The notes: generated by a model not told the origin, from the letters alone. DNA of 64,000 nucleotides from Methanomassiliicoccaceae archaeon UBA328 (GCA_002506905.1 DAYM01000004.1:16147-80146), one strand, 5' to 3'; positions 2,083-63,583 are shown, numbered from the stretch's first letter. Made by a program: numbers and translations.

Positions 2083-5000
2083 ATGAACGGTGCCTTGGAC
2101 CTCTATGACCCGTCATACGAGCAGGACTCATGCGGAGTGGGCCTTGCGGTCAATATCAGCGGAGTCAGGGACCACAGGATAGTCGAGTACGGACTCAGGA
2201 TCCTGGAGAACATGGCACACCGCGGTGCGGAGAACGCCGACGGAAAGACCGGAGACGGTACCGGGATAACGGTCCAGATACCGCACGACTTCATCAAAAC
2301 ACTTGATATTCAGGTCCCCGAGGCCGGCAGGTACGGCACGGGGATTATTTTCTTACCCCGCGGAGACAGTGACAGAAAGGTCTGTCTTTCCATCCTCAGG
2401 GAGGAATGCGCACGTTACGGACTGTATGAGATAGCCCTAGGGATGTCTCCGTCGATCACGAGATCCCCGGGCCTCTGGCACTTGCCGCCGAACCTGTGAC
2501 AGAGCAGATATTCCTCACAAGCTACGACGGTCAGGATACCCTGGAGCACAAGCTTTACGCGGTCAGGAAGAGGGCCGCCAACAGGATCGCGGCCTCCGAT
2601 ATGGAAGGAAAGGACGATTTCTACATCTGCAGTCTTTCGACCCGCACGATCACATACAAGGGAATGCTGACCCCGCTTCAGATCGGGTCTACTACAAGGA
2701 CCTGACCGATCCGATGTTCAGGTCGTCCATAGCGATGGTCCATTCCAGATTCAGCACCAATACCATGCCCAAGTGGAAGCTGGCACAGCCTTTCCGCATG
2801 TTATGTCACAACGGCGAGATCAACACGATCAAGGGCAACAGGTAATGGATGAAGGCAAGGGAGAGCTTTCTGGAGACGCCCGAGCTTCCCGATCTGAAGG
2901 AACTGTTCCCGATAATGCAGGACGGCATGAGCGACAGTGCGACATTGGACAACGTCTTCGAATTCCTGACAATGGCGGGAATGAGCATGCCGAACGTCCT
3001 TTCGGTCCTGATCCCGGAATCTTGGAACAACAAGAACCCGATCCCGGACAGTCTGAAGGTGTATTACGAGTACAACAGCATCCTGATGGAGCCCTGGACG
3101 CTCCGGCCACCGTGCTTTTCACGGACGGAAGATACGCCGGCGGTATGCTGGACAGGAACGGCCTCCGTCCTGCCAGATATTCGATGACCAAGGACGGTAT
3201 TATGATACTGGCCTCGGAATCCGGCGTCATTCAGATCCCGGACGACGATCTGGAGGAATCCGGACGTCTGATGCCCGGAAAGATGATGCTGATCGATACG
3301 CAGGAAGGCAGGGTGATCTACGACCGCGAGATCAAGGACGGTTTCGCCAATGCCTATCCTTACAGGGATTGGCTCGACCGCAACCGTTTGGAATTGGACG
3401 AGGTGTCCTCCGGAAGGACGGTAGGACGTTCCGTTGAGAATATGGATGCCATGCTCAGGGAGTTCGGATACACTCAGGAGGATACTTCGAGGATAATCCT
3501 GCCGATGATGACGCAGGCCAAGGAACCTACCGGTTCGACCGGTTCGGACGTTCCTCTGGCTATATTGTCCGAGAATCCCCAGAGGCTGTTCGGTTTCTTC
3601 AGGCAGTCATTCGCCCAGGTCACCAATCCGCCCATCGATCCGATAAGGGAGGAGCTGGTGATGTCCCTGACGGGATACATCGGTTCGATCCATCAGAACA
3701 TCCTGAGTCCGAGTCCCGCCAACTGCAGGATAGTCAAGGTCAGGCACCCGATCATCACCAACAGGGAACTGGACCTTCTGAAGAATCTCAGGTACAGAGG
3801 ATTCAACACGGTGTCCATCTCCATGACGTTCAGCGTTGCGGACGGTCCGGAAGGGCTGGAGAAGGCGCTGACAAGGATATGCCACGAGGCGGAAGCGGCC
3901 GTCGACAACGGCGGTTCTTACATCATACTCTCGGACAGGTCGGTGGACAGGGACCATGCCGCGATACCTTCGGTGCTCGCGGTCTCCGCGGTCCATCAGT
4001 ATCTGGTCCACAACAAGAAGCGTGTCCAGACCGGCATCATCGTGGAATCCGGAGAGCCAAGGGAGGTAATGCACATCGCGCTGCTGTTCGGATACGGCGC
4101 CAATGTGGTCAATCCGTACATGTCCTATGCGCTCATCGAGAAGATGGTCGCGGAGCAGGACGATATCAAGACCGATGTCGATACCGCGGAACACAATTAC
4201 ATAAAGGCCCTGGAGAAGGGTCTTCTCAAGATCATGTCCAAGATGGGCATAGCGACCATCAGGTCATACCGCGGTTCGAGATTATTCGAGGCCGTAGGAT
4301 TGGATAATGAGGTATGTGCCAGATACTTTGCGCATACCGTTTCCAACATCGGAGGTCTGAAGCTCGGGGACATAGCTTCCGAGGCCCTTGCGACACACAG
4401 GGAGGCATTCGAGAGCGATGAGGATCCCCTTGCTTCGGACAGGGGGATATACGGTTACAGGAAGGGCGGGGAGAAGCATGCCTGGAATCCCGATACGGTG
4501 AAGGCGCTCCATCTCGCGGTCAGGGAGAACGACGGGGAGGCCTACAGGTACTTCGCCGAGACCGAGGATTCCGGACAGTTCTTCATACGCAGTCTGATGG
4601 ATGTCAAGAAGGGCAGGAGCATACCTCTGAAGGAGGTGGAATCCGCCGACAGCATCATCAGGAGGTTCGTCGCAGAGGGAATATCGTTCGGTGCGATCAG
4701 CATCGAGGCCCATACCACTTTGGCGGATGCCATGAACAGGATGGGGGCCATGAGCAACTGCGGTGAGGGCGGAGAGGCCTCCTGGAGGTTCAGGCCCAAG
4801 GACGGCAGGAACCTGAATTCCAAGGTCAAGCAGGTCGCTTCCGCAAGATTCGGCGTCACTGCAGAGTATCTGGTGAGCGCCGAGGAGATACAGATCAAGG
4901 TCGCCCAGGGCGCCAAGCCCGGTGAGGGCGGTCAGCTCATGGGATTCAAGGTGGACGATGTCATTGCTTCTACGAGACATTGCATTCCGGGGATCACGCT

Positions 5001-6495
5001 GATCTCGCCTCCCCCGCATCACAATCTCTACTCGATAGAGGACCTGAAGCAGCTGATCTTCGACCTCAAGTGCGTGAACCCCGCCGCAAGGATAAGCGTG
5101 AAGCTGGTATCCGAGGCAGGGGTCGGTACCGTGGCCGCGGGTGTGGCAAAGGCCGGTGCGGACGTGATCCTGATATCCGGTGCCGACGGAGGTACCGGCG
5201 CGAGTCCGCTGTCCTCTATCAGATATGCGGGAATGCCCTGGGAGCTCGGTGTCGCGGAAGCGCAGCAGACGCTGATGATCAACGGGCTGAGAGGCAGGGT
5301 CAGATTACAGGCGGACGGTCAGCTGAAGACCGGCAGGGACGTCATCATATCGGCTCTCCTGGGAGCAGAGGAATACGGTTTCGCCACGGCACCGATGGTG
5401 GCGATGGGCTGCATCATGTGCCGCAAGTGCCAGACCAATACATGTCCTGTGGGAATAGCCACTCAGGACCCTGCGAAGCGCTCCAAGTTCAGGGGAACCC
5501 CCGAGAATGTCATGAACTACTTCAGATTCGTCGCGGAGGATGTCAGGACGCAGCTGGCCCAGATGGGATTCAGGTCCCTGGACGAGATAATCGGCCGCGC
5601 GGACCTGATCGTCCGTAAGCCCGCTGCAGGAAGGAGATCGGACCTGGCCGACATCAGCGGTCTGATCGCAATGCCCGAAGGCGACAGGACATACAGGGAC
5701 GGACAGCCGGACATACTCGGAGAGGTCCTCGACAAGAAGATGATCAAGGATGCGAACATCGCGATGGATGCGGGAGATTCGGTGAAGCTCGAGTACGGCA
5801 TCTGCAACGTCGACCGTTCGGTCGGAGCAATGCTCTCGGGAGAGGTCACGAAGAGAGGTCTGGCACTCAAGGACAATGCCATACAAATATCGTTCAAGGG
5901 AACGGCCGGACAGAGCTTCGGGGCATTCCTTTCCAAGGGTATGACGTTCTATCTCAACGGTCAGGCCAACGACTTCGTCGGAAAGGGCCTTTCCGGAGGG
6001 AGATTGGCGGTATATCATTCCGGCCATGTTCCCAGATGCAACGTGATCGCGGGGAACACGGTATTATACGGGGCCACATCGGGAGAGGCGTACATTGCCG
6101 GTTCTGTCGGTGAGAGGTTCTGCGTACGTAACAGCGGTGCCGTTGCCGTGGCCGAAGGGGCCGGCGACCATTGCTGCGAGTACATGACAGGCGGCCGCGT
6201 GGTGATACTCGGCAAGGTCGGAAGGAACTTCGCTGCGGGAATGTCCGCCGGAATAGCGTACGTTATCAACGACGACGGGGATCTGGACCGTCACTGCAAC
6301 ATGGGAATGGTAGAATTGCTTCCGATGGATTCCGCCGCGGACAGGAACGAGCTCAGAGGTATCCTGGAAGATCATCTGAAGTATACCGGCAGCGAGAAGG
6401 CCAAGGCCATATTGGACGATTGGGAGAACAGCGTTACCCGCTTCCTGAAGATCATCCCGATAGAATACGAGAAGATCCTGCATTCGAAGGATTAA
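2083..6495 (+). pseudogene. gltB: Glutamate synthase large subunit (fused amidotransferase-FMN-GXGXG type), disrupted in the N-terminal domain
   Basis: Joining the + frames gives a ~1470-aa GltB: MNGALDLYDPSYEQDSCGVGL (Ntn amidotransferase start), [99 protein letters not shown], then an uninterrupted frame to TAA at 6495. The frame changes near 2440, 2685 and 3097, and there is an in-frame TAA at 2843..2845. Confidence 0.85.
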
Positions 6496-14059: not shown

Positions 14060-15307
14060 TCACATCGGGTTGATTATGCGATCCAATAGATACATCGCAC
14101 CTTTTGCTCCGAATATCGGTGATGGTCTGAAATCAACATTTGCGACCGACGGGAATCTGATATCGATGCCTTTCCTGCAGTGTTTGGAAGCCTGTTCCAG
14201 CATGGCGGTGTTCCCATCGCATAAGATCATGTTAACGAATTCCGGAAGCTCTGCGTTGATGGTATTCTCAAGATCATGTTCTTTCAGGAATTCTCTGAGT
14301 ATCTCTTCGGACCTTCCGTACTTGCTATCGTACAGTCTTATCGATACAGGGACCATCGAGAGTGATTCGAACATCCATCTGGCGAGAGGATATGCCACAG
14401 ACGCATCTGTGTCTATCGCAAATGTGTCTCCTTTGAGATCTGCCCTCATGGCATTCATGCAGAAGAATGCTCTCTTGCGATACTTATCCACATGTGTCAG
14501 GGCTTTGTTTCCATTCATTCCGGTAATCTTCTCTATGAGTCTGATGAGTGCATCTGTGGCATCGAAACCGATCGGTGAATAACCGAGACTGATCTCCTTG
14601 ATACCGTATTCTTCGGTGTAGAGTTTCGAGGTCTCGTCGGCATATTCGGGGCATAGGACAAGATCATATTCGGCGTTGACCGATCTTTTCACCTCGTCGA
14701 TCGTGCACCCCGCTCCTAAAGTGCAGATGACCTTTAATCCCATCAGGGACAGGATCTCTGTGAACTCTTCGATAACGGTCGGCCAATCTTTTTGGAGTAC
14801 GCTCAGTCCAAGGATGTTGACTGTATTCTTCTCCATGATGTGATCGGAAGGTGCCAGCAGTCTGACCATATCGGCGAGCATATGGTCTATCCCGTAGCTG
14901 AGAGGTTCGGACATCATGGAGGCATCAAGGGATATTGCCCTGGAATCCAGTTTGTTCACGGATATCGCCTTGTTGCAATCATCGCCTATCAATGATGCTC
15001 CGGGAGAGCATACCACGGCGATGAATTCCGAATCGCCTCTTCCGACAAATTCCAATGCGGACTCGATCTTATCGTATGATCCGTAAATGTAATCGGTGGA
15101 TATGATCCCCGTACAGGGGATCCTGGAGGATCCGCGATAGAAAGGAACGCCGATGTTCATGTTCTCTTTCGGGCGGGGATAGCTTTTGCTTGAGAGTATG
15201 TTCAGGTTCTTACGGCAGCCGTCCGGTCCGTGAAGTATGACCTCTGCATCCTTTATTCCTTCTATGGCCATTATTGCGCCTACGAATCCGTCAGGTCTTG
15301 CATCCAT
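14060..15307 (-). CDS. Nitrogenase component-1-fold protein (NifD/K/E/N, BchN, NflD/CfbD-like)
   Basis: 415 aa. Contains ARPDGFVGAIMAIEGIKDAEVILHGPDGC, IPCTG and AVVCSPGASLIGDD, a three-Cys pattern as in BchN/NflD-type subunits. No NifH-like gene is in the window. Confidence 0.65.
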   Translation of the reverse strand: MDARPDGFVGAIMAIEGIKDAEVILHGPDGCRKNLNILSSKSYPRPKENMNIGVPFYRGSSRIPCTGIISTDYIYGSYDKIESALEFVGRGDSEFIAVVCSPGASLIGDDCNKAISVNKLDSRAISLDASMMSEPLSYGIDHMLADMVRLLAPSDHIMEKNTVNILGLSVLQKDWPTVIEEFTEILSLMGLKVICTLGAGCTIDEVKRSVNAEYDLVLCPEYADETSKLYTEEYGIKEISLGYSPIGFDATDALIRLIEKITGMNGNKALTHVDKYRKRAFFCMNAMRADLKGDTFAIDTDASVAYPLARWMFESLSMVPVSIRLYDSKYGRSEEILREFLKEHDLENTINAELPEFVNMILCDGNTAMLEQASKHCRKGIDIRFPSVANVDFRPSPIFGAKGAMYLLDRIINPM

Positions 15308-15853
15308 TCAATCACCCCAAGAGAGCCAGCCTTCCTTTTCATTCGCGATAAGGATGTTGCTCATATATTCCAGATAATAGATCGATGCCTTGTGGGATAT
15401 GCATTCCTGAGGTATGATGCACGTCTTGAAAGGCAATCCTCTTGTCAGCATACTGTGCCCAATCACAAGGTCAGGTACTTCGGATATTATCCTTCCTGAT
15501 ATCTCCCTGATGTCGTTCCCGATGCGGATATTCAATTGTTTGGAGAAACGGGAATAGAACGGACAGCAGTTCCTGCCCATGGTCATGATGTCAACGCTTA
15601 TGACCTCTGCACCCGCATCCAAGAGGGTCTCCAAGGCCCAGTCTATTTCCATCATATCCGTTGACAGTACAGCGATACGTTTTTCGGACAGTGCCTTTCT
15701 GTAGTATTCCAATGCGGTATTGTATTTCTCATTCACGGACCCTATGGCCGGAGCAGCAAGTTCTTCTTTACCAATCTTATTGCATACGGATTCGATCCAT
15801 TCGACCGTCTGGCTATGTCCTTTGGGCAAAGGTTCTTTGAAGATATCCTGCAT
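15308..15853 (-). CDS. Nitrogenase component-1-like protein, C-terminal-domain-sized only
   Basis: 181 aa. PLPKGHSQTVEWIESV..KRIAVLST..ALETLLDAGAEVISV..PDLVIGHS resembles domain III of NifK/N-like subunits. Its TGA is followed directly, and in frame, by the ATG of the 415-aa gene. Confidence 0.45.
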   Translation of the reverse strand: MQDIFKEPLPKGHSQTVEWIESVCNKIGKEELAAPAIGSVNEKYNTALEYYRKALSEKRIAVLSTDMMEIDWALETLLDAGAEVISVDIMTMGRNCCPFYSRFSKQLNIRIGNDIREISGRIISEVPDLVIGHSMLTRGLPFKTCIIPQECISHKASIYYLEYMSNILIANEKEGWLSWGD

Positions 15854-15932: not shown

Positions 15933-16538
15933 TCATGGCATCCATATCATTGCTTCCAGGTGACGTTCTGTCTTTTTTAGGTTCGGATTCGAACTGAGAA
16001 ATTCTGCGATGATCTGTCCTTCTTTTGAATCTATGGTCACGTTTGCGAGCCTGCAGCATGATTTTATAGCATGATCTTCAGAAAAGACGAAAGGCTCGTT
16101 TATATCAACAGATGTCCAAATCGATCTTCCGTGATCTAACAGATAATCTTTTGCATTGAAGATCTTGAAATTGGGTTCGATATCCAGTTTTTTCAGAACG
16201 GAATATCCGAAATCACTGTCTTTGCGGCTCGGACCAATGTACGCGCATATGCCGGAAGACAATTCTTCTAATTTTTTCATCCCCGGTTCCCCATACATGG
16301 GAGGGCACAGACATGACAAGGCAATGTCGAATTTCTTGCCGGCGTATGATATACAGTCCCTATTTACACATTCTATGTTGTCGATTTTCGATGACGAACA
16401 TGCAGCTCTTAGTTTGTCCAGCATTTCTTCGCAGGAATCTACAGCGGTTACGCTGTGGGCGATCTCCGATAATTTGATGGCATGTGTGCCGGGACCGCAT
16501 CCCAGATCCACCGCGGAGTCTACTGGCAGATCTATCAT
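15933..16538 (-). CDS. Class I SAM-dependent methyltransferase (5' end disrupted by an in-frame TGA)
   Basis: Motif I VDLGCGPG lies only 10 residues after the first Met. The frame stays open upstream (KDIAGRYPLNPNANRVTKTIGAIGR) to a TGA at 16614..16616, which is preceded in frame by ATG-AAC-GAA-AAC-ATA starting at 16631. Confidence 0.7.
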   Translation of the reverse strand: MIDLPVDSAVDLGCGPGTHAIKLSEIAHSVTAVDSCEEMLDKLRAACSSSKIDNIECVNRDCISYAGKKFDIALSCLCPPMYGEPGMKKLEELSSGICAYIGPSRKDSDFGYSVLKKLDIEPNFKIFNAKDYLLDHGRSIWTSVDINEPFVFSEDHAIKSCCRLANVTIDSKEGQIIAEFLSSNPNLKKTERHLEAMIWMP

Positions 16539-16627
16539 TCTGCCTATGGCCCCGATTGTTTTCGTGACGCGGTTCGCATTGGGATTTAAAGGATATCTGC
16601 CGGCTATATCCTTTCATATGTTTTCGT

Positions 16628-16862
16628 TCATTTCTTCTCGAATATGAGGATCTCTGACGTATCGTCATAGTCAAAGCGGTCCATCAGATACAATTTGTTC
16701 TCCATCATGCTACGGATATATTCTTTTCCGTCTTCATAACCATGATGGTGTTTCGCGTTTTTTCCGGAATATGCATTTTCATGCAGATCTACTTCCACAC
16801 AGTGATCGTAGTTCTTTCCGAATTTGTTTGCAATGAATGTTTTCCAACCTTCTCTGTCCTTT
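16628..16862 (-). pseudogene. Startless ORF remnant of unknown family
   Basis: 77 open codons (SKDREGWKTFIANKFGKNYDHCVEVDLHENAYSGKNAKHHHGYEDGKEYIRSMMENKLYLMDRFDYDDTSEILIFEKK) with no start near the 5' end. An out-of-frame ATG (MKDRKDHKC) lies just upstream. The stop overlaps the methyltransferase ATG at 16631 as ATGA. Confidence 0.3.
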
Positions 16863-20667: not shown

Positions 20668-21024
20668 TTGCATTACAAGAAATTCAAATATCTATGTTCG
20701 GGAATCCCGAGAGGACCTGATTTTCGATCAGTTGATGTGGGTGCAGTTTCCATACGTACAACGAATGGAAAAGCCCCGGAATTCACTCAATTGGAGATAG
20801 ATTTCGTTGTGAACAAAGGGAACGAGTGCATCTACATCCAATCCGCTTATTCCGTTCCCGACGCAGAGAAGCACGATCAGGAGATAAGGCCCTTCCTGAA
20901 GGTCGGAGATTCTTTCCGGAAGATCATCGTAGTGAACGGAGATGAAAAGCCCTGGGTCGACGACAACGGCATAGTGGCTGTCGGTGTCAGAAGATCTCTT
21001 CTGGATGAATCGCTGATCGGGTGA
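20668..21024 (+). pseudogene. C-terminal fragment of an AAA_14/DUF4143-type ATPase
   Basis: Only the tail is present (LEIDFVVNKGNECIYIQSAYSVPDAEKHDQEIRPFLKVGDSFRKIIVV). There is no Walker A region upstream. Confidence 0.6.
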
Positions 21025-21758: not shown

Positions 21759-22007
21759 GCGGGATGGGAGGCACGGGCATAATATGATGGTTTCGGCCGA
21801 CTGCAGAAAAGGTCGTATCAATTGATATGAAATCTGTGTGACTTCGGTTGGGCTGTAGGTTTATCGGAAAGTCTGTCGAGAGGTTTCCGGAGGTGTTGAT
21901 CGGCGTGGCGGATATTTTTGAGGGATCTGCGAAGGAAAAGAATTGGGTCGTTTTTATAAAGGAATAAAAGGTGAACGGAAGGTCCGAAGACCCTCCGTTC
22001 GTTTCGA

Positions 22008-23753
22008 TCATGCCTTCTTGGCACCCTTCCTGACAACGAAGAAGTACGCCAGAACTCCGATGAGTGCCACGGCGATCACCGCAACGACGATGATGACTGT
22101 CGTGTTTCCGCCGTCGGAAGGCGTCGGTGTCGGCGTGGGTGTCGAGGTGATCACGTATCCGGAGATGCCTTCCTCGACCTCCTTCAGGGTGTAGCCGTGT
22201 CCGGCGATGTCCGATGCGGATGTGAGAAGGACGCCGTCCGTGTCATAGAACGGATACTCGAAAGCATCCGTTCCGATGGACGTTACCGTGGCCGGAATGA
22301 TGACATTCTCGAGCTTGGAACAATCGACGAACATGTTGTCTCCGATCCTGGTCAGGCTGCTGCCGAGATTTGCGGTCTCGAGGGAGTAGCAGCGTTCGAA
22401 GACGCCCGCTCCCGCAGTGTTCAGGCTGTCGGGGAAATTGACGCTCTCCAGACGGTAACAGTTGGAGAAGGCCTGTTCTCCCAGGTTGTTCATTCCTTCC
22501 GAAAGGCTCAGATCGGCAAGGGTGAAGCAGTTGACGAATGCGGCAACGCCGACGGTACTGACATTCTTGGGTATGTCCACGGAAGTGAGCGATACGCACC
22601 CGGAGAAAGCTGCCTGTCCGATCGATGTGACGCTTTCGGGTATCGTAATGCTCTTGAGCAGAACGCAGTCGACGAAGGCTCCGTCGCCGATCGATGTAAT
22701 GGTATCCGGCAGGGTGACCGACTGCACTCTGGTGTTCTGGAATGCACCCATGCTGATGCCGGTGACACCCTTTCCGACCGAAACGGATGTTATGGAGTAT
22801 CCGTAATTATACTTCTCGGATATCCACTTGGCATCGCCCATATCGCCGTTCCCGGTGATGGTGAGTATGTTGTTCTCAAGGGTCCAGGTGGCTTCTCCCG
22901 TTGTGCCGCTGCCGTTGTAGTAGTCTATTCCGCTTGTGTTGTACTCGTCTTCCGAAAGGCCGAAACCGTCTGATCCCAGAAGTGTCGCCTCTTTCGTGAC
23001 GGCGTCGGCGAATTCGAAATAGATGCTGTTCCCGTATTCGGTGTAACCGTTGGCGAAGCAGCCGATATCGGATCCGATGTTGCTGCCGTTCGCAATTGCG
23101 GTTATCCAGGCATCGTTGCCCGTGACCGTTATCTTCGCAAGGCTTACGCAGTGTCCGAAAGCGGTATCGCCTATGGCGGTGACCGTATCGGGGATGGTGA
23201 AGGATGTCAGAGAGCGGCACCCGTCGAATGTGCTGATCCCGATGGATGTGATATTTCCTTCGAACGTTACGCCGATGAGTGAAAGGCAATTTTTGAACAG
23301 GGAGTCCGGGAGTTCGGTCACTTCTTTTCCGAGTGTCATCGTCTGAAGGGATCCGCAGTCCTGGAAGGCGCCGGACCCGAGTTCTGTCACGGACTCGGAG
23401 ACGATCACGGAAGTAAGTGCCAATCATCCTCTGAACGCCTGGCTGCCGATGGAGGTGACATTGTTCCCGATGATCACGGATGTGAGCGTCAGGCAGTCTG
23501 CGAAGGCCGCGTTCCTGACGGCGGTGACGTTGTACAATGTGCCGTCGATGGTGACGTTATCTTTCACGGCAGCGCCCCCATCGGAATCGAGCTCGTCCAT
23601 GTCGTATCCTACGGCAGTTACGCTGCTTCCGTCGATCGCGTACAATACGCCGTCCTCTTCGAGATCGTATTTCACCATTGCATCGGACCCGTCGACGGCG
23701 AAGACGGCGGCGGCAATGGTCCCTGTGGCTTCGGTCGCATTGGGACAGAAAGA
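22008..23753 (-). pseudogene. BspA-like leucine-rich-repeat surface protein, 5'-truncated, with an in-frame TGA
   Basis: At least 12 repeats of the type AF..C..L..v.ip.sVt.IG, then a TPTPTPTPS linker and a C-terminal TM anchor. The TGA at 23424..23426 lies in frame between AFRG and LALTSVIV. No signal peptide or start codon at the 5' end. Confidence 0.8.
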
Positions 23754-24201
23754 TTACGGAAAAGCTCTCGTCGGGTTTTCGTATACCGTCCGTATATGCG
23801 TAATCATTTCCGTTGTGCTATCCATCCTGGTGATACTGTTTGCCGATCCCCTGTCATATGTGTTCACATATTCTGAGGGAATGGAGTATCTTCAGTCGGA
23901 ATTTGTCAAGGTCATTCGCATCTACGGATTCGTGATCCTGTTTCTGGTAGTGATCGATGTATGCTCCAGTATTCTACAGACCCTTCAATTCTCACAATTG
24001 GCTGTTGTTACGATGTTCTTCAGAGAGAGTCTTTTCATCCTGTTCTATTGGATCTCCACATTTTTCTCCATGGACGCTGTATATTGGTCATTGCTGATCG
24101 CTGAAGGAATAGGTGCGGTGATCATGGCGGTGTTCGCAATATATGCGGTAAGAAAGAGATCGTACGATTACCCGAGAACTCCCAAGCCTATTGCGACCTG
24201 A
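23707..24201 (+). pseudogene. C-terminal fragment (about 160 aa) of a MATE efflux transporter
   Basis: AAAMVPVASVALGQKDYGKAL... aligns with SQAMVPVCAASYGARRVDRI (about residue 300) of the intact MATE gene at 49674..51062. The first ~300 codons are missing. Confidence 0.7.
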
Positions 24202-24283
24202 TGTGGATGTCGGAGTCATCGGATGACATGATCGGCCTTTCGACGGGATTAGGTTTTTCTAATCTCTCTTCCTTTGTCTCAAT

Positions 24284-24901: not shown

Positions 24902-25435
24902 ATGGTTGCGGATCCGTCGTACGTGCCGAAGGACGGACGTTCTGTCATTTACTTTGCGGGAGGGTGCTTCTGGGGAGTGGAGAAGGCGTTCTCGGTCATG
25001 CGCGGTGTGACGGATACCGAATGCGGTTACGCGAACGGGTTTGACAGACTCATCCCGGATTACATGCTGGTTTGTTCCGGGAAGTACGGTTATTTGGAAG
25101 CCGTGAGGGTGGAGTACGATCCGAAGATCATCGGATCGGACCTTCTGCTGGCGGCGTTCTTCATGATCATCGATCCCACGGACCGGGACAGACAGGGGAA
25201 CGATATCGGGCACCAGTACAACACGGGGATCTACTGGACGGACGAGAGTACCGGCAGGTCCGTGAAAGCGTTCACGGAACAGGAGAGGAAGAAGTACAAG
25301 GTGTTCTACACCGAGATCGGTCCGCTGGAGAGGTTCACCGTCGCGGAACCGGAGCACCAGGATTATCTCGACAGGAATCCCGGAGGGTACTGTCATGTTC
25401 CGGAGAGGACGATCAGGGTGCTGAGGATGTTCTGA
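24902..25435 (+). CDS. msrA: Peptide methionine (S)-S-oxide reductase MsrA
   Basis: 177 aa. Contains YFAGGCFWGVEKAF and GHQY.TGIYW. Confidence 0.9.
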   Translation: MVADPSYVPKDGRSVIYFAGGCFWGVEKAFSVMRGVTDTECGYANGFDRLIPDYMLVCSGKYGYLEAVRVEYDPKIIGSDLLLAAFFMIIDPTDRDRQGNDIGHQYNTGIYWTDESTGRSVKAFTEQERKKYKVFYTEIGPLERFTVAEPEHQDYLDRNPGGYCHVPERTIRVLRMF

Positions 25436-25555
25436 GATCAGATCGTTTTATTCTTCTGCAAATTTGTCAACGGCCGGAGTTCCTGCGCTGTACTCCGATC
25501 ACCAAAAGATCGGTGATCTGCGGATTTTGATAATCTTTGAAACGATCGTAGTATC

Positions 25556-25792
25556 ATGGATTTGGAGTATAATCTGAAGAAATTGGATGACTGGTATGAG
25601 AATGTTCAGGATGATGTTTTCTCAATATCGATCGGACCTGGAAATCTGATGGAGATCATCTTGTATAATTCCCGTAATCTGAGAGTGCAGGATAAACTGG
25701 AATTGTTTGGTTCCCTGGATGATTTTCTGTGTTTGGTTGCAGAGTTTGCGGAGATAAGAATAGAGAAATTCTTCCGGGAAGAGGATCAGTGA
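25556..25792 (+). CDS. Hypothetical acidic protein
   Basis: 78-aa ORF at the left edge of the AT-rich island. No recognisable family. Confidence 0.3.
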   Translation: MDLEYNLKKLDDWYENVQDDVFSISIGPGNLMEIILYNSRNLRVQDKLELFGSLDDFLCLVAEFAEIRIEKFFREEDQ

Positions 25793-25820
25793 ATAATAGA
25801 TCCTGAGACGATCGGATCTC

Positions 25821-25976
25821 ATGGATCAGTATGTTCACGTAGAATGTCCAAAGTGCGGAGGGTATGTTCTTGCTGCAGATATGAAATATTGCGAGTCTTC
25901 GGAGGAGGAGAGATTCGAGTATTATGTTTGCGGGTGCGGGTGTAGGTTCGGAGTAAGATATTTTGTTGACGGGTGA
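25821..25976 (+). CDS. Small zinc-ribbon protein (51 aa; below the ORF-track size cutoff)
   Basis: MDQYVHVECPKCGGYVLAADMKYCESSEEERFEYYVCGCGCRFGVRYFVDG. CPKC plus CGCGC gives a four-Cys ribbon. Confidence 0.35.
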   Translation: MDQYVHVECPKCGGYVLAADMKYCESSEEERFEYYVCGCGCRFGVRYFVDG

Positions 25977-26190
25977 GGAATAATGCTCACTTGGTACGAA
26001 AAAACTTGCATAGTTTTATGATCTGATAGTGTGTATTTAGGTATGCCGTAAAACAGGTCGTGCGATCATCGTAGTTGATAGTTATTCCTGGACAGTTGAA
26101 GACAACAACAATGCAGTAAAGAGGACAGATCTGTCTGTTTTCAAAAATCACGGTACGGCCATTCCGGTAGATGTTAGGTTTTTCTTCGGA

Positions 26191-26874: not shown

Positions 26875-26920
26875 GCCAGTCGATAGTTAAAGCACACTGA
26901 GCACGACATCTGATACAGCA

Positions 26921-28568: not shown

Positions 28569-28657
28569 GGTACCAAAGTGGCATGGTTCAAAAAGTAAAT
28601 AGATCTCTTGGAAAATAGTGTACACATTGTGCACTGTTCGGTAGTGTACCATTGCAG

Positions 28658-35157: not shown

Positions 35158-35161
35158 CTTT

Positions 35162-37016: not shown

Positions 37017-37107
37017 GCATCTCATAATAAACTAAATGTGTATAAAACTATCATAAGGAAAGGTTCGTTCCGACGGCTGGCGCCGTCGGAACTGTTGTTT
37101 TGAAGTT

Positions 37108-41469: not shown

Positions 41470-41817
41470 TCAATGGGAGATCGGTTCGTAATCCAATTCG
41501 GAACACGCATCAGTAGCTTCCAACTTGAATATCACGGGCCTGAGTCCGTCGTTGCAGCTGCATATCGCCACACCCGGTTTCCTGATCTAATCTCCGAAGT
41601 AGAACGTCTCCTTTCCGGCGCCGTGCGCAAGGGCGAACACGTATTGGTAGATCGCTTTCCAGGCCTCGTCGCAGAATCCTTCCGGTTTGGCGTAATCCGC
41701 GTAGAACACATCTCCTTCCCTTAGCATGGGGCATTTCCCGAGGCCTTCGGCACCGTATTCCTCGGCGAGGTCCTCGTTGAACATCGTCCGGATGACCGTT
41801 ATCTTGACCTTTCTCAT
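41470..41817 (-). CDS. TIGR04076-family protein with an in-frame TAG at codon 77
   Basis: MRKVKITVIRTMFNEDLAEEYGAEGLGKCPMLREGDVFYADYAKPEGFCDEAWKAIYQYVFALAHGAGKETFYFGD-TAG-IRKPGVAICSCNDGLRPVIFKLEATDACSELDYEPISH-TGA. TAG at 41587..41589. Confidence 0.65.
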
Positions 41818-41893: not shown

Positions 41894-42847
41894 TCATTCA
41901 TCCAGATGGAATATGACGCCCATGTCTGAGTACTCGCCGTCAAGATATTCGGCGTAACAGAATCCGATAAGGACCTTGTCATGGAACATAGCGGCCGCAT
42001 TCATGATCAGGGATCTTTCTCCGTAATACAGGCCCATGCCGAAGCGTTCCATCATCGTGACGGTGACGGTCTCTTCCTTGTACGTTATCTCTTTCGTGCC
42101 CGTATCTTCCATATCTATGATGGCACCGGATTCGATAAAGAAGTAGAACACGGAGTAAGCATCGTCGGATGTTCCGATCAGGAGCGTTCCGTCGTGTTCG
42201 CCGAGGACCTCGATCTCTATGGAGTCCTCCCCGTTGGAGAAAGTACCGAGTGACAGGCCGACAAGTCCGGACGGGACGTATTCCTCATGTGCACGCAGAT
42301 CATAGGATACAAGGGTGTATACAGTGACCTTATTCTCTCCGAAATAGATCATCCTGTACAGCGCATTGTTGCACTGGCCGGAATCGTCCTGTCCCACAAC
42401 ATATTCGAAATTTTCGTTCGTATAGATGTCCACCGTGACCTTTCCGTCGCAGGTCTTTATCTTCTCTGTTGCCGTCAGTTCGCCGGAATAGGAAAATGCG
42501 TTGCCTTTGAGGATCGTTTCTTTCATGGTCATTCCCGAGGAAAGATTGAATTGGTTGTTCTCCAGGCTCCAATATGTGTCGCTGTTCTCCGATAGGACCT
42601 CTATGTGATATTCGTCGGTCTCGTAGAGGACGGGCACATCATCTTGGTACACGTAGTTCTCGACCATGTAATCCGCAGTGGTGCCTATTCCGGGGTTTTC
42701 GAAAGTGGCTCCGTCTTCGGAGGGGTTGTCATTCGATTGTTTGATGAGCGCTCCGACGGTTGCGGAGCCCACTGCCAAAAGAATGACCAGAATGATCGCG
42801 GCAAGGGCATTCAGTGATGCTTTATTATCGCCGGACAATGTCTTCAT
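41894..42847 (-). CDS. Membrane-anchored extracytoplasmic protein, tandem paralogue 1 of 3
   Basis: 317 aa. N-terminal TM anchor, EDGATFENPGIGT and TCDGKVTVDIY motifs shared with the next two genes. Confidence 0.6.
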   Translation of the reverse strand: MKTLSGDNKASLNALAAIILVILLAVGSATVGALIKQSNDNPSEDGATFENPGIGTTADYMVENYVYQDDVPVLYETDEYHIEVLSENSDTYWSLENNQFNLSSGMTMKETILKGNAFSYSGELTATEKIKTCDGKVTVDIYTNENFEYVVGQDDSGQCNNALYRMIYFGENKVTVYTLVSYDLRAHEEYVPSGLVGLSLGTFSNGEDSIEIEVLGEHDGTLLIGTSDDAYSVFYFFIESGAIIDMEDTGTKEITYKEETVTVTMMERFGMGLYYGERSLIMNAAAMFHDKVLIGFCYAEYLDGEYSDMGVIFHLDE

Positions 42848-42924: not shown

Positions 42925-43863
42925 TCAGAGATCTGTGTTCGTATAATATTTACTGACCTCAGCGTCGTCGAAGCTATCTCCATACGAAACATCTTCCATC
43001 ATGATTATGGTCGCTGCTCCGTCTATTGTACTGACAAATACATTGACGGCTCCGTTAGATGGTTTACCTTCGACGGTCACGGAACCAACATCGATAGAGT
43101 AGCCGTGAGCTTCATAGGTAACATCGCCTATCGTCTTTGTCGTCGTTCCAAGGTCTCTGTCGTATATGGGAACTAAGTTGCTGCTGTTGACTGCAAAGCA
43201 TCCATCCATTATTTCATACGTGAATTCGAGGAAATAGGTTCCCTTGTATTCGCCCACGACTTCCAGACCAGTTGTTTTGCTTGAATCTGTAGAAGACTTG
43301 AATGTGCCGATCACGAGTCCGATATCCTCGGGAGTGTAGTCTTCGGAAGATTTCAGGACATACTTTGTGAGGCTTAGTGTGCTGTTATCATTATCGTTCA
43401 CTATTTTGTAAACTGCGAGATTTTTCTTTCCGGAATCTGCCTGACCGACGTAGGCAACATTGTCATTTTCATCTTCGTACACATCGACAGTAACCGTTCC
43501 GTCTATTGTGTCCATTGTTTCTGTTCTGACTTTGGTGGAACTGGCTGTATCGAAGACTGAATCATAAGAGATCATGACCATTTCGAAATCAGTCATTGAA
43601 GCGATAACGGTACTCTCCATTACGGGTGCGTTTTTGTCGTATCCGACACACTTCATAGTCATTTTAAGGGATACTTCCGTTTCTGAAAGAAATCCGGTTC
43701 CTTCATATGTTATCGAAGTTCCAACTCCGAAGTCCTCAAAAGTCGCGCCGTCGTCTGAAGTGTTTTTGTTTTTCTCGTAATAAGTATAACCAACAACTCC
43801 TGCGATCAAAAGGATGGCCACGACAACTATTGCGGCAAGCGCTCCGCCTGCCTGTTTATTCAT
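42925..43863 (-). CDS. Membrane-anchored extracytoplasmic protein, tandem paralogue 2 of 3
   Basis: 312 aa. TM anchor, DDGATFEDFGVGT, TIDGTVTVDVY. Confidence 0.6.
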   Translation of the reverse strand: MNKQAGGALAAIVVVAILLIAGVVGYTYYEKNKNTSDDGATFEDFGVGTSITYEGTGFLSETEVSLKMTMKCVGYDKNAPVMESTVIASMTDFEMVMISYDSVFDTASSTKVRTETMDTIDGTVTVDVYEDENDNVAYVGQADSGKKNLAVYKIVNDNDNSTLSLTKYVLKSSEDYTPEDIGLVIGTFKSSTDSSKTTGLEVVGEYKGTYFLEFTYEIMDGCFAVNSSNLVPIYDRDLGTTTKTIGDVTYEAHGYSIDVGSVTVEGKPSNGAVNVFVSTIDGAATIIMMEDVSYGDSFDDAEVSKYYTNTDL

Positions 43864-44106: not shown

Positions 44107-45069
44107 TCATGATGAGATGTATCTCGCCTTATCATACGAATCGTTGCTGCCGGTCAGCGTTTCGATGCACACGCAGATGTCGTTCTGATCGGTGTAGACA
44201 TGTATCAGGCTCTTGTTGTCCGCTCCGGCCACCGTTTCGGTGTAATGGACCTTGGACCATTTGGTGACATCCACATCCGTACCGTTCAGGGTCAGGACGG
44301 TCTTCTCTTCTTCGGCGCAATCGGCCGGAAGGCCGGTCTCCTTGTCGACGATCAGGAATTCGTTTGTGCCGTCGAATGTCATGATGTACGTTCTTTCGGA
44401 CTCTCCGATGTACCATGCCTTAAGCACGGTGAGTGCTTTCGCATTCTCGAGTTCGAATGTACCGTAGATCGTACCGATCTTTTCCGACAGGACGATATCT
44501 TCGTGGCAAAGTATGCAGTATCCCGCGAGCACGGATGTCCTGCCATCGGTCTGTACGGTCTTGTAGACCTTGTATATGCAGTCCGGATCGGTGTAGTAGG
44601 TCAGTTTCTCGATGGAATCGTAGTAGACATCGACCGTTTTGTTACCGTCGCACGTTCCTATTGTTTCTGTTCCCAGATAATCGGAATCGTCTGGGACGGC
44701 GAACACATCGTAGTAATGATACAGTTTCTCGGAGAACACACTGTGGGTGTATCCGTCATATTCCGCGGAGTAGTTCGTTTCCCCGACGGCCAGCATTCCG
44801 ATGGCCCCTTCGCCGACGCATTCGAAAGAGGCTGTCCCTTTGGCCACGGCCTCTCCGTCGTTGAAAGTGAAATCGTAGTGAATGAAAGAACCCAGTCCCG
44901 GATCGGAGAATGTTGCGCCTTCTTCCGTATAGCGTTCCTTCCAATCCGCGGTGTCTTCGCCGTCAAGGAGATACACAACGCCGATGCCTGCGGCGATCAG
45001 GGCTGCCGCTGCGATGACGGCTATCATTGCAACAGATGCGCTGCCCGGACAACGGCGTTCTCCGTACAT
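44107..45069 (-). CDS. Membrane-anchored extracytoplasmic protein, tandem paralogue 3 of 3
   Basis: 320 aa. TM anchor, EEGATFSDPGLGS, TCDGNKTVDVY. Confidence 0.6.
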   Translation of the reverse strand: MYGERRCPGSASVAMIAVIAAAALIAAGIGVVYLLDGEDTADWKERYTEEGATFSDPGLGSFIHYDFTFNDGEAVAKGTASFECVGEGAIGMLAVGETNYSAEYDGYTHSVFSEKLYHYYDVFAVPDDSDYLGTETIGTCDGNKTVDVYYDSIEKLTYYTDPDCIYKVYKTVQTDGRTSVLAGYCILCHEDIVLSEKIGTIYGTFELENAKALTVLKAWYIGESERTYIMTFDGTNEFLIVDKETGLPADCAEEEKTVLTLNGTDVDVTKWSKVHYTETVAGADNKSLIHVYTDQNDICVCIETLTGSNDSYDKARYISS

Positions 45070-54151: not shown

Positions 54152-54400
54152 TCACCAAGGCGGATTGCCGGTCCTGTCGAGGGTATCGTTGTATTCTTTG
54201 ACGTACTGATGCGTCAGGATCAGACCTGCGATCCACACGACCAGACATCCCAGGAACGGTAACAGGAAAAAGAAACCGAGAGCGAAACAGACGATGTTCA
54301 GGATCATCAGGATCATTCCCTCCAAAGATTTTCCGACCACAAATACTCCCAATCCCGGGAAAATTATGCTGAGGATCATCATGATCCCCTCATCCCTCAT
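54152..54400 (-). CDS. Small two- to three-TM protein; downstream half of a split zinc-ribbon/TM gene
   Basis: MRDEGIMMILSIIFPGLGVFVVGKSLEGMILMILNIVCFALGFFFLLPFLGCLVVWIAGLILTHQY. Its ATG is created by the 7-bp duplication at 54390..54403. Confidence 0.5.
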   Translation of the reverse strand: MRDEGIMMILSIIFPGLGVFVVGKSLEGMILMILNIVCFALGFFFLLPFLGCLVVWIAGLILTHQYVKEYNDTLDRTGNPPW

Positions 54401-54575
54401 CCCTGTGTTCCGAATACTTGGGCTGACTTCCTCTGGCACCGGCGCTGGGATCGTTCCTCGTAGTATCGTTGGGATCGAATCCGGGGCCTTCGGTCTTGGG
54501 AAGCTCTTTTCCGCAGATGACGCAGAACATCGACGTATCGTCGTTCTTCGCACCGCAGTACGGACAATAGGACAT
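54390..54575 (-). CDS. Zinc-ribbon protein; upstream half of a split gene
   Basis: MSYCPYCGAKNDDTSMFCVICGKEL. It ends HRDEG-TGA inside the duplicated heptamer. Confidence 0.5.
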   Translation of the reverse strand: MSYCPYCGAKNDDTSMFCVICGKELPKTEGPGFDPNDTTRNDPSAGARGSQPKYSEHRDEG

Positions 54576-55686: not shown

Positions 55687-56201
55687 TCAATTTCTCAGGC
55701 ATCCTATGGGCAGTACGAAGACCCCGTCCTCGCGGACATACGCATATTCCGTACTGGTTATTACCGCCATGAAGGATGGGTTTCCCACATTGTCCGTGTT
55801 GACAGTTGTTGAACCCGTGAGGATATACAGTCCCGTTTCATTTCTCAGATCGACGCTGAGCCTCACCGAGTCCCAAAGCTGCGGCGCTACCTGCCATTCG
55901 CCTATCAGCCGCGGATTGTCTCCCTTGAGAAGTTCAGAAGGTTTCAATTTTGCAAGGGCCGGATTCCTGTCCTTTGATCTCAGTCCTGCATTCTCAGAAC
56001 ACTTTTTGACAGTTGCGAGGCCGTTGTTGTTTTCCCACACCATTTAGGGCCCATGATCAATACGGCGCCAAATGCTTCCAGATCATCTTTCAATTCTTCA
56101 TCTGCAAGTCTTGGGATGTATCCGGTCATGTGTTGATCATAGTGTTCCGAGTATGATATGTATCGGTTTTGCGGCATTGTTATTCGATACATCCGGCCCA
56201 T
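55687..56201 (-). pseudogene. AAA_14/DUF4143-type ATPase remnant (frameshift plus large internal deletion)
   Basis: N-terminal piece with Walker A (IMGPKWCGKTTTASQLSKSVLRMQD, stop). A second frame continues RSKDRNPALAKLKPSELLKGDNPRLIGEWQVAPQLWDSVRLSVDL..GLYILTGS and then jumps to a C-terminal tail (AYVREDGVFVLPIGCL). Total is about 170 codons, where I recall about 400 for this family. Confidence 0.7.
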
Positions 56202-60394: not shown

Positions 60395-61249
60395 TTATGC
60401 GTGGTTGACAGCGATATCGGGAACAGATATCGGTTCTTCTTTCCGTACGTTGTCCACAGGTTCGTCGTCATAGGCTTTGGAGAGGAATGTAGGATAGTAT
60501 GCGATGTTCAGCAATCCGGTCTTGGGATGGCGGCTTACTGCTGCCTTGACATTGTAGATCTCTTGGATCATATCTTCCGTGATGACCTTTTCGGGCGTAC
60601 CTTCCATGATAATGCGGCCGTCCTTGATAACGTAAAGCCTGTCGCAGTACTGTGCAGCAAGATTCAGATCGTGCATGGCGCAAAGGGCCGTACAATGAAG
60701 ACTTTTGACGATATCCAAGACCTCTAACTGATATTCGATATCAAGGTGGTTAGTCGGTTCGTCCAATACCAGACAGGGCGTTTGCTGTGCAAGTGCCCGT
60801 GCAAGGATGATGCGCTGCTGCTCTCCTCCCGAAAGCGATGAGAATGCCCTGTCTGCAAATTCCAGCATATTGACCTTTTTAAGGGCATTTCTGACGATCT
60901 CGCGATCTTCTTCGTTATCGGTCTCCATTGCCTTTTTATGAGGGGTTCTGCCCATCATAACGACGTCTTCGACCCTGAATTCGAAGTTGTAGTAGTTATG
61001 TTGGGTGACAACTGCCATTTTCAAAGCACTCTCGCGGAGATGCATAACATCCAACGGTATGTCGTCTATCAGAATCTCCCCGGAGTCCCTTTTCATCACG
61101 CGGTAAATGGATTTCAGCAACGTGGATTTGCCGCTTCCGTTCGGTCCCAAAAGACCTACGAACTCGCCGTCATTCACATGTATGGTGGCTTCATTCACTA
61201 TGCGTTTGGTGGGAACCGAAACGTCTACTTCTTTTGTTACTATGTCCAT
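60395..61249 (-). CDS. FecE/BtuD-type ABC ATPase
   Basis: 284 aa. Walker A GPNGSGKST, signature LSGGEQQR, Walker B LVLDEPTN. Confidence 0.85.
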   Translation of the reverse strand: MDIVTKEVDVSVPTKRIVNEATIHVNDGEFVGLLGPNGSGKSTLLKSIYRVMKRDSGEILIDDIPLDVMHLRESALKMAVVTQHNYYNFEFRVEDVVMMGRTPHKKAMETDNEEDREIVRNALKKVNMLEFADRAFSSLSGGEQQRIILARALAQQTPCLVLDEPTNHLDIEYQLEVLDIVKSLHCTALCAMHDLNLAAQYCDRLYVIKDGRIIMEGTPEKVITEDMIQEIYNVKAAVSRHPKTGLLNIAYYPTFLSKAYDDEPVDNVRKEEPISVPDIAVNHA

Positions 61250-62309
61250 CAGCTACCAGCTCCGAAACTGTAAGATTTCTTGATCATAATGTATGCGAAC
61301 ACGGGTGCACCGCAGATGGCGGTAATGATACCGATCGGTATCTCCGAGACGGTTAACGAGCGCGCAAAGATGTCGGCGACCATCATGAATATCGCTCCCA
61401 GGAGGATCGATATCGGATAGAGTTTCCAATGGTTGGTCCCAACCAGTGCACGGCCTATATGCGGTATGATCAGACCGACGAATCCGATCAGTCCGCAGTT
61501 GCATACCAAAATGGCTACCATGAACGCGGTGATCAGAATGTAGGCCTTTCTGAGGGTCGAAAGATTGATCCCCAGCGTGGTTGCGGTATCGTCTCCCAAC
61601 ATCATTGCGTTAAGGTTACGCAGCTGTGTCAGGAAGAACACGATACAGATGACAAGGGGGACCGCGCACATGACAACGGTATCGAAACCAGTCGTGCTCA
61701 GGGAACCCATAAGCCAGAATGTAAGGTCCCTCATCTGGGTGGCGTTAGGTGCCAGATATACGATGAGATTTGAGAAAGCACCGCATAATGATGCGATAAT
61801 TACTCCGGAAAGGACCAATTTCGTCGATGTGATCTTTCCTCCCACCGCAGATAACGTGAATACGGCTATCGATGCTAGATCGCACCGATGAATGCAAATG
61901 CTTCCACACCGAAAGACGCAAAGATCGTTCCCGCAAGCACGGATGAACCGAGAAGGATCGCGAACGTTGCACCCAACGATGCTCCTGACGATATACCCAA
62001 TATGTACGGATTGGCAAGAGGATTCTGGACCATTGCCTGTATGACAACTCCCACAAGTGCCAATCCGGCGCCGACCACAAGTCCGAGCATTCCGCGGGGA
62101 GCATAGAGCTGCCAAACGATCGCTACGGTAGCAGGACGTATATCAGAAATATCGCCGTATCCGAATATCTTGTTCAATAGTATACGCACAACTTCATCGA
62201 ACGGAACAGACACTGCACCGGTAAACGTCGAATAGGCTAGAACGACGATCATGACCAATACGAGGAGAATGATCAGTCCTACTGTTGATATGTTCCCTAG
62301 TTTTTTCAT
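61249..62309 (-). pseudogene. FecCD/BtuC-family ABC permease with one frameshift
   Basis: N-terminal piece ..NPLANPYILGISSGASLGATFAILLG..AFAFIGAI stops at TAG. The frame shifted by one base continues LASIAVFTLSAVGGK..GLIGFVGLIIPHIGRAL.. to the end. The shift is near 61880. Confidence 0.85.
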
Positions 62310-62365: not shown

Positions 62366-63313
62366 TCAGGTCAAGATATCCACAAGAATGTCGAGGGTAT
62401 CGATCACCGTGGGATCGGCACCATACGAAATACTGAGGTTCATCGAGTAATATTCTCCATTGGTGATAGCAGGAGATGCAGCCAGAACAGAATCGGCTTT
62501 CCAAGCGTTCACGGTCTCATCCAGAGTGTTGTCACCGTAACAGATGACGAACAGTACGTCGATGGTCTCTGCTCTGTCGTATAATACAGCGAGAGATGTT
62601 CCGCTTCCCGTATCGCTGAAGACATTGGTAACGCCGCACTCGTCAAGAATGCTGTTGATGAATGCCTTGTTGTAGAACCATACTCCGTCGGCTTCGGGAA
62701 CGCCGTCTTCCATGGCATATGACAGAGTGCTGTTCTTCAGAAGTTCTTTGACCTCATCAATCTTGTCTTCCAGTGAATCCATGTATTTGTCGGTCTGATC
62801 CTTTACATTGAAGATGTTTCCGATGTTTTTGTAGTCAAGTTCCATTCCTTCGATGGAATCCATGTCGACCATGGTACGGAGGGACCAGACGTTGCATCCC
62901 AGAGCGTTCCAGTAGCTGGGGGATCCGAGTTTGGCATCTGACCATGCTACCCATGCTATAACGCAGTCGGGTTCCCAATCGGTCAGGACAGCCTGGCTGA
63001 TGTTGCCGGTAAGAATGTGATCGCTTCCGATCCTTTCTGCGACCTCTTTATATTCATCCTGGAGATCTTCTGGCACTTCTTCTTCCATATAGTAGATTCC
63101 GATGATCCTGTCGCCGAGACCGAAGTAAAGAAGGATGTCGAGTGCAGTGTTGCATCCAACGACCACCCTTTCAGGTACTTCTTCATATGTCTGTTCAGCA
63201 GTGTTTCCGCTATAGTCTGTAGGTGTGACAATGGTTATCGCACCGTCGCTGTATGTGCCTTTGTTGTTACCGTTCATGCTTATAACAACATATACCGCAC
63301 CTGCAGCGATCAC
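62366..63313 (-). CDS. FecB/BtuF-type ABC substrate-binding protein (5' end probably frameshifted)
   Basis: 315 aa from a GTG inside the signal anchor. The frame is open upstream (ESLENADRTIAVVVIV) with no start. The ATG at 63360 is out of frame, and the shift coincides with an A4 run. Confidence 0.7.
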   Translation of the reverse strand: MIAAGAVYVVISMNGNNKGTYSDGAITIVTPTDYSGNTAEQTYEEVPERVVVGCNTALDILLYFGLGDRIIGIYYMEEEVPEDLQDEYKEVAERIGSDHILTGNISQAVLTDWEPDCVIAWVAWSDAKLGSPSYWNALGCNVWSLRTMVDMDSIEGMELDYKNIGNIFNVKDQTDKYMDSLEDKIDEVKELLKNSTLSYAMEDGVPEADGVWFYNKAFINSILDECGVTNVFSDTGSGTSLAVLYDRAETIDVLFVICYGDNTLDETVNAWKADSVLAASPAITNGEYYSMNLSISYGADPTVIDTLDILVDILT

Positions 63314-63583
63314 TATTACAACGACCGCAATGGTGCGATCTGCATTTTCGAGAGACTCATAATATCTCTGTTAAATGTAAACCATGTGGAAATATATAAG
63401 TTGGATGTATATTCCAAGTTATATGTTGTAAATAATATCAAAAATATTATTTCAATATAGAATTGAATATCTGGGGCGAGTTCTGATTGAGAATAATGTA
63501 AAAGAATGGATAATGTACAAATTATACAGTCTGTGGTCGAATGTCAACATAGTTGAAAAATCAGATCATTTATTGAAATCGTA

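Follow-up and report, generated by a model that had tools for sequence, protein, structure and literature searches.

Broken genes in the window

The window, a stretch of 64,000 nucleotides from the assembly of Methanomassiliicoccaceae archaeon UBA328 (GCA_002506905.1 DAYM01000004.1:16147-80146), carries the genes for the thermosome, GrpE-DnaK-DnaJ, fibrillarin, Kae1, S15, ProAB and similar proteins, with tRNAs at 45193, 49415 and 60181 only. Alongside these are many interrupted genes, including a bacterial-type glutamate synthase (gltB), parts of two ATP-binding cassette (ABC) importers, and genes for surface, efflux and restriction proteins, which are the subject of this analysis. Lesions were read in three-frame translations, with stop codons mapped. 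The first-pass annotation, made from the sequence alone, had reported at least 15 broken loci, and 14 of its 15 lesions are present as described; set against the roughly 62 protein-coding loci of the window, 15 broken loci give a density of about 24%. Its statement that the information-processing genes are intact in the window is also correct. It is concluded that the broken genes are very probably true pseudogenes, carried by a single uncultured archaeal species whose natural population is widely distributed. From the glnA-gltB synteny and the stop-codon usage described below, this species is most likely a methanogen of the Methanomethylophilaceae.

Below, X labels denote public metagenome runs, and L labels denote assembly loci or strains used for comparison. 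The gltB stretch is contained in 19 public runs, one of which, X1 (2014, fermentation), matches the window perfectly; it is the source sample, the run being named in L088, and hence is not independent. The independent material consisted of contigs from eight public metagenomes other than the source, together with six other assemblies. Contigs were compared over the full 64 kb for X2 (wastewater, 2025), X4 (manure, 2021) and X5 (activated sludge, 2025), whose divergence from the window is about 2-5 substitutions per kb. The non-source runs with the lesions date from 2019-2025, and include the landfill strains X9 and X13. The habitats of the strains are digesters, manure, wastewater, sludge and landfill, with fermentation among the run labels. 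Regions beyond the window are known from contigs fetched by protein identity. A metagenome scan for gltB returned two further archaeal relatives and Bacteroidales, and no same-species copy.

The lesions were compared with these independent sequences, a check that had been proposed earlier in the form of reads from another technology and was made here with contigs of other runs. The shared lesions persist in X2, X4 and X5. Indels between these three and the window occur only at 2212, 7844, 36946, 37044, 37604, 54387, 61877, 62351 and 62746, and across the 64 kb none of them repairs a shared frameshift. For the in-frame stops, the base-level evidence is the substitutions listed, with support coming partly from matching gene calls in other assemblies. 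The split gene calls are identical in JGI, ENA, NCBI and Logan assemblies. Homology to a single family runs across the interruption in gltB, the GmrSD-like gene, the LRR gene, both FecCD permeases, the TIGR04076 gene, the six-transmembrane (six-TM) paralogue and the ATPase remnants. For four loci, gltB, permease 2, the zinc-ribbon gene and the TIGR04076 gene, intact alleles or orthologues were also found.

Glutamate synthase and other interrupted genes

The gltB gene (2083-6495, + strand) encodes the large subunit of glutamate synthase and contains a TAA and three 1-base deletions. Comparison by tblastn with the intact gene of the relative L005 places the frame changes near 2437, 2690 and 3096, and the deletions themselves are located at about 2438, 2684-2690 and 3095. 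The TAA, at 2843-2845, occupies a position that is Ser in L005. From 3097 to 6495 there is an open frame of 1,133 codons, compared with about 1,460-1,500 codons for the intact genes of the relatives L005, L098 and L099. The glnA-gltB pair is syntenic with that of L005 ('Candidatus Methanomethylophilaceae archaeon MAG098'), at identities of 77% for GlnA and 71% for GltB. The next best GltB matches are from Bacteroidales, at 55-58% identity, which indicates that gltB is a bacterial-type acquisition.

Comparison of strains gives the order of events in gltB. The TAA is found in every strain sampled. At the three frameshift sites X9 and X13 have an additional C, A and G, so that the frameshifts are absent and the TAA is kept; X19 lacks only the middle frameshift, and X5 has a further deletion at 2212. 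The order is thus TAA, then two frameshifts, then the third, then the 2212 deletion in X5. All four indels that followed the TAA fall in the first 23% of the gene, which is the amidotransferase part ((0.23)^4, p ~0.003). In the strains examined there is no lesion past 3097, and no indel downstream of 3300. Pooled single-nucleotide polymorphisms (SNPs) comprise 2 synonymous and 9 non-synonymous changes in the 5′ part and 12 synonymous and 10 non-synonymous changes in the 3′ part, the latter exceeding the neutral synonymous share of 0.295 (p 0.012). The ratio of non-synonymous to synonymous polymorphism (pN/pS) in the 3′ part is 0.25, similar to that of intact genes, although SNP numbers are small. 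A relative-rate test against L005, which cannot separate the two parts, gave no acceleration in either, implying that the decay is recent.

The gltB fragments in the window are joined by stop/start overlaps, GTGA at 2496-2499 and ATGA at 3184-3187, and at 2843-2851 the TAA is followed by an ATG starting 3 bases later, as it is also in X9 and X13. On sequence grounds these overlaps could permit re-initiation, and the remainder of the gene could be expressed by means of them (ATGA at 3184). We tentatively suggest, as a possibility that falls short of being the probable one, that after an ancient split by the TAA only the amidotransferase quarter of gltB decayed, and that the 1,133-codon synthase part has been kept by selection as a predicted amidotransferase-less glutamate synthase. 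In some archaea the domains of glutamate synthase are encoded as separate, shorter genes. The synthase part described here (central, FMN and GXGXG domains) is similar to these in having no fused amidotransferase domain, but would have reached this state differently, from a fused gene of bacterial type whose 5′ quarter decayed. If this is true, gltB would be a case of a domain being lost through pseudogenisation, observed in progress in a wild population.

The TIGR04076 gene (41470-41817, - strand) is interrupted by an in-frame TAG at 41587-41589. Read through this codon, it spans profile positions 1-90 of 91. The site is TGG in X4, L085, L087 and L089, and the TAG is derived from TGG by a single change. 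The stop codons of the 83 genes in the window and its flanks are TGA (65), TAA (17) and TAG (1); TAG ends none of the 44 window genes and one of the 39 flank genes. For 'Candidatus Methanomethylophilus alvus', and for the order to which it belongs, read-through of amber codons as pyrrolysine has been proposed (Borrel et al., 2014, PMC4153887). The situation here is like that of 'Ca. M. alvus' in that TAG is nearly absent as a stop (1/83, against 1.6% of stops in that genome), and in that an in-frame amber codon occurs in an ordinary gene and is absent from its homologues; it is unlike it in that the amber codon is a TGG/TAG polymorphism within the species (PMC4153887). It is plausible that the TIGR04076 amber codon is read as pyrrolysine. 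Both this gene, by amber read-through, and the synthase portion of gltB may retain partial function.

The remaining lesions outside the two dispensable segments described below are varied. The S-adenosylmethionine-dependent (SAM) methyltransferase gene (15933-16631, - strand) has an in-frame TGA at 16614-16616, after codon 5 from the ATG at 16631. An internal ATG leaves about 8 residues ahead of the GxGxG motif. The gene has no frame-changing indel in X2, X4 or X5, and the same 201-residue gene is called in other assemblies; the TGA base itself is unconfirmed in X2, X4 and X5, as only part of the substitutions was listed. An open reading frame (ORF) at 16628-16862 (- strand), encoding 56 residues from a GTG, had been described as startless and broken. 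It does indeed lack an ATG. Whether it is broken cannot be judged, because a profile search gave no credible family match to the ORF and the 56-residue call has no Pfam match.

A further candidate for truncation is a nitrogenase-like ORF of 181 residues at 15308-15853 (- strand), which matches only positions 223-352 of the 399 in the Oxidored_nitro profile, the C-terminal third of the domain. It lies directly upstream of a full 415-residue paralogue (14060-15307; profile positions 3-398), its own TGA being followed at once by the ATG of the paralogue, and no NifH-like gene adjoins the pair.

There are two ATPase remnants. Remnant 1 (20668-21024, + strand) is the 3′ end of an ATPase gene of the AAA_14 and DUF4143 type, comprising the last ~100 of ~430 residues. 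It matches nothing in Pfam or NCBIfam, and was identified by an all-protein search, in which it corresponds to the C-termini of proteins of 415-445 residues carrying AAA_14 and DUF4143. Remnant 2 (55687-56160, - strand) is the N-terminal part of an AAA_14 ATPase gene with a frame change and an internal deletion; a composite with the frames joined matches AAA_14 positions 4-102 of 129 with E 1.3e-5, slightly below the Pfam cut-off.

The six-TM paralogue (36444-37019, - strand) is 39% identical to its intact neighbour and has an in-frame TAA at 36891-36893, with two further 1-base deletions, at 36946 and 37044, in X2 and X19. In the zinc-ribbon/TM gene (54152-54575, - strand) the lesion is a 7-bp duplication, with CCCTCAT present twice at ~54381-54394. 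This was seen only in the window and X1; the 7 extra bases are absent from X2, X4, X5, X9, X13, X15, X19, L089 and L090, which have an intact gene of 138 residues. FecCD permease 2 (61249-62309, - strand) has a 1-base deletion at 61877, and is restored to frame by an additional C after 61877 in X2, X5, X9, X13, X15 and X19; X1 and X4 lack this C. The adjacent binding protein 2, of the Peripla_BP_2 family (62366-63358, - strand), has an ATG and 4 codons that are out of frame with the body of the gene across an A4 run, so a 5′ frameshift is plausible. It has further lesions in other strains, with an additional T or TT at 62746, and a split into 123 and 168 residues in L092, L093 and L097.

Dispensable segments, lesion ages and local extent

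Six of the 15 broken loci lie on two segments that are missing from part of the population, two on a short segment and four on a larger island. The LRR/MATE segment (21998-24283, 2,286 bp) is missing in part of the X2, X5, X9 and X13 populations, where position 21997 is joined to 24284; in X5 the joined form has a depth of 213, against 49 for the form that keeps the segment. The segment contains an LRR_5 surface protein gene (22008-23753, - strand), which lacks its 5′ end and start and has an in-frame TGA at 23424-23426, presumably at the Cys position of the repeat. The truncated 5′ end of this gene abuts the 5′ end of a MATE efflux fragment (23716-24201, + strand), which consists of the C-terminal 161 codons only and whose product matches MatE. 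Both truncations are present wherever the segment occurs, and in L003 the LRR gene has three further deletions.

The island (25436-35220, 9.8 kb) extends from the msrA stop to just beyond an ABC ATPase gene, and has a G+C content (GC) of 0.39-0.45 compared with ~0.52. Part of the X9 population is without it, with a joint 25435 to 35220 (depth 22 vs 51.6). At 25435 several runs continue into different sequence, and the site may hold alternative cargo. The island differs by 0-3 changes per 9.8 kb in every strain, a diversity of 0.61 SNP per kb against 5.6 elsewhere (P ~6e-17); outside it the strains are 0.5-1% divergent. Its six lesions are probably older than its spread, because so little diversity leaves little time. 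The window also differs from L085, L086 and L087 by TGCGGG, a 6-bp indel at 25929 that keeps the frame of orf51, a small Cys-rich ORF.

The cargo of the island is the HNH gene, the GmrSD-like gene, an intact PLD-helicase-DUF3427 gene, and ABC importer 1, of which the ATPase gene is intact. The HNH endonuclease gene (26101-26874, + strand), with an extra N-terminal domain and HNH at residues 164-220, has no in-frame ATG but a two-codon ATG start in another frame, which makes a 5′ frameshift plausible. The GmrSD-like gene (DUF262/DUF1524; 26921-28652, - strand) is divided among three frames, the three pieces matching GmrSD_N, GmrSD_N and GmrSD_C, and was intact in none of the strains examined. 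FecCD permease 1 (33165-34297, + strand) has a frame change near 33610 and a TGA at 34076-34078, apparently at the Gly of the motif 'GFIGLV'. In some strains it also has T7 reduced to T6 at 33380.

Upstream of permease 1 is a gene that had been called binding protein 1 (31778-33121, + strand), a frame of 447 codons with a TGA at 32165-32167. The TGA was described correctly, and the family is not supported: there is no binding-protein family match in Pfam or among PDB sequences, and no similarity to binding protein 2. The product is a membrane-anchored protein with a dockerin-like module. Its only family match is a weak one of the N-terminal part (31778-32167) to dockerin type I, which is unusual for an archaeal protein linked to an ABC importer.

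In its low GC, its sharp boundary at a gene end, its type IV restriction-like genes, its presence or absence within the population and its very low diversity, the island is like known defence and variable genomic islands. It is unlike them in that no integrase, tRNA or repeat was seen at its ends: no integrase family is among the Pfam matches on record for the island genes and there is no tRNA at the ends, whereas end repeats were not searched for. A further difference is that 2/3 of the nuclease genes and 2/3 of the ABC importer genes are broken in every copy.

The lesions are of different ages. Besides the gltB TAA, every strain sampled has the lesions in the six-TM pseudogene, at the 5′ end of binding protein 2 and in four genes of the island (HNH, GmrSD, binding protein 1 and permease 1). 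Both ATPase remnants and the TGA of the methyltransferase gene are present in the runs and assemblies checked, and are not confirmed in all strains. Polymorphic lesions are the three gltB frameshifts, the permease-2 deletion, the zinc-ribbon duplication and the TIGR04076 TAG. In other strains five pseudogenes have further lesions; the strain-specific ones include 1-base deletions in permease 1, the LRR gene and the six-TM pseudogene, as well as those of binding protein 2. The intact paralogue of the six-TM pseudogene also has a 1-base deletion in other strains. Among the indels, deletions outnumber insertions by roughly 15 to 5. The earlier suggestion that decay is ongoing is thus well founded, given lesions of differing age, strain-specific additions and deletion polymorphism of remnants.

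New stops were also found in other strains in orf317 and a TrpB-like gene. The former (41894-42847) is one of three secreted or anchored paralogues, with those at 42925-43863 and 44107-45069, and has nonsense alleles at codon 9 in L085, L087 and L089 and a different one in L090. L003 and L090 come from one ENA assembly with coverage of 4-5, in which the thermosome gene has a 1-base deletion, proA a CG insertion and the TrpB-like gene a GGA to TGA change; at such low coverage these core-gene lesions may be assembly errors rather than decay. Separately, the 210 substitutions between the window and six assemblies (7918-62088) comprise 106 C/T and 45 A/G exchanges on the + strand (p 7e-7). The C/T excess does not depend on the strand of the gene and is the same in each third of the window, which points to an asymmetry linked to the replication strand and not to transcription.

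The density of broken genes was to be compared with the rest of the genome, and the comparison made was with about 45 kb of flanking sequence, of which 18 kb lie to the left of the window and 27 kb to the right. These flanks contain ~47 called genes and one obvious split, a second MATE gene just to the right of the window (L091, 4041-5373), which is in 3-4 pieces, the number varying by strain. The difference between 15/62 in the window and 1/47 in the flanks is significant (Fisher p 0.0009); when an equally crude split criterion is used for both, it becomes 7/62 against 1/47 (p 0.13). As far as seen, the high density is local to a variable accessory region. The Pfam matches on record for genes called in the window and its flanks include no insertion sequence, transposase or integrase family.

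Explanations and significance

Several points weigh against reading these loci as decaying pseudogenes in a locally enriched region. Pooled pN/pS does not differ between pseudogene fragments (0.37) and intact genes (0.32), with SNPs too few to tell them apart. The strains compared yielded no intact allele of HNH, GmrSD, binding protein 1 or permease 1, and the 5′ frameshifts of HNH and binding protein 2 come solely from reading the sequence. Logan contigs drop rare variants, so that minor intact alleles could go unseen. Finally, the criterion used in the flanks, adjacent fragments of one family, is cruder than that used in the window.

Three other explanations were considered. Sequencing or assembly errors in a single metagenome-derived assembly, especially at short homopolymers, might be suspected, since several frameshifts fall in runs of 3-4 identical bases and the window perfectly matches a single 2014 run. 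This explanation was rejected, its probability being negligible: the same lesions occur in runs of 2019-2025 and in JGI, ENA and NCBI assemblies, and the differences between strains are common to several runs and track strain relatedness. A second proposal is that the interruptions are decoded in the cell, by recoding of stop codons, by programmed frameshifting or as working split genes. Its attractions are the use of TAG to end just 1 of 83 genes, the continuation of the TIGR04076 frame past its TAG to the full profile, the ATG 3 bases after the gltB TAA in X9 and X13, the GTGA and ATGA overlaps in the window, and the pyrrolysine read-through proposed for the order (PMC4153887). We regard it as very unlikely for the broken genes as a set. 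TGA and TAA are the normal stops here, and recoding of TGA is rejected in particular, because TGA ends 65/83 genes while the four in-frame TGAs appear to replace differing residues. Judged from family motifs and not from alignments, these would be Cys, Gly and probably Trp. No shared motif was found at the frameshift sites, truncations and internal deletions cannot be decoded, and the interrupted genes acquire more lesions in other strains.

Genome-wide reductive evolution, as exemplified by Mycobacterium leprae and Sodalis, is the remaining alternative. It would make the window a fair sample of a host-restricted lineage with at least a fifth of its genes decaying, and had been suggested earlier in terms of a host-associated lineage. 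Several observations fit: housekeeping genes are intact while transport, defence and metabolic genes are broken, the indels are mostly deletions, intact genes have a fairly high pN/pS (0.32), and a further MATE gene, just beyond the edge of the window, is split. In addition, streamlined genomes and an association with the gut have been described for the family (PMC4153887). We nevertheless consider this alternative improbable. There is only one split gene among the ~47 of the flanks, 6/15 of the lesions are on the two dispensable segments, no transposase or integrase family is among the Pfam matches on record for the called genes, and the habitats in which the strains occur are digesters, manure, wastewater, sludge and landfill. 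The bacterial-type origin of gltB also counts against it. Ongoing decay is supported, and genome-wide reduction or host restriction is not established.

The lesions represent a real, natural and ongoing process in which accessory and acquired genes decay and their remnants are deleted. We propose that ordinary point mutations would have broken the genes, mostly 1-base deletions, together with nonsense mutations, one 7-bp duplication and larger deletions. The functions affected would be ones no longer needed, namely a bacterial-type glutamate synthase, two FecCD-type ABC importers, efflux and surface proteins, type IV restriction and AAA_14 ATPases. Decay would proceed stepwise: after a first lesion is fixed, others accumulate in the part that is already dead, the partner genes of the operon are hit in turn, and in the end what is left is deleted. 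Strains living today would show several such stages side by side, in a variable accessory region that includes an island whose pseudogenes would already have been broken when it recently spread. The lesions, their recurrence in independent data, their polymorphism and the presence or absence of the two segments are observations, from which we infer relaxed selection as the cause and a direction for each change.

Processes of this kind are known, though none has so far been described from this group. Mycobacterium leprae, Sodalis glossinidius, Shigella and Salmonella Typhi have accumulated pseudogenes after recent niche restriction. The window is like these bacteria in that transport, defence and metabolic genes are hit and information-processing genes are intact, that deletions predominate, and that remnants are lost after decay. 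It is unlike them in that the organism is an archaeon from engineered anaerobic habitats, with no insertion sequence or transposase family on record for the window genes, in that the high density is known only for a variable region of ~45 kb, and in that many of the lesions are on island or acquired genes. To our knowledge, archaeal pseudogene loads have seldom been documented, and split genes in metagenome-assembled genomes are usually put down to assembly noise. For this family, nothing specific on pseudogene loads was found in the literature. The study of Borrel et al. concerns streamlining and amber handling in gut Methanomassiliicoccales, and pseudogene load is outside its subject (PMC4153887).

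The public metagenomes form a natural time series, in which the same loci are intact, hit once, hit repeatedly or deleted in different strains. They provide material for mutation spectra and deletion bias in an uncultured archaeon, and for direct tests of amber read-through and domain loss. They could also be used to ask which acquired functions, such as the bacterial glutamate synthase, FecCD-type importers and type IV restriction, are being lost. As a caution, these loci should not be annotated as functional in pathway reconstructions of this methanogen group.

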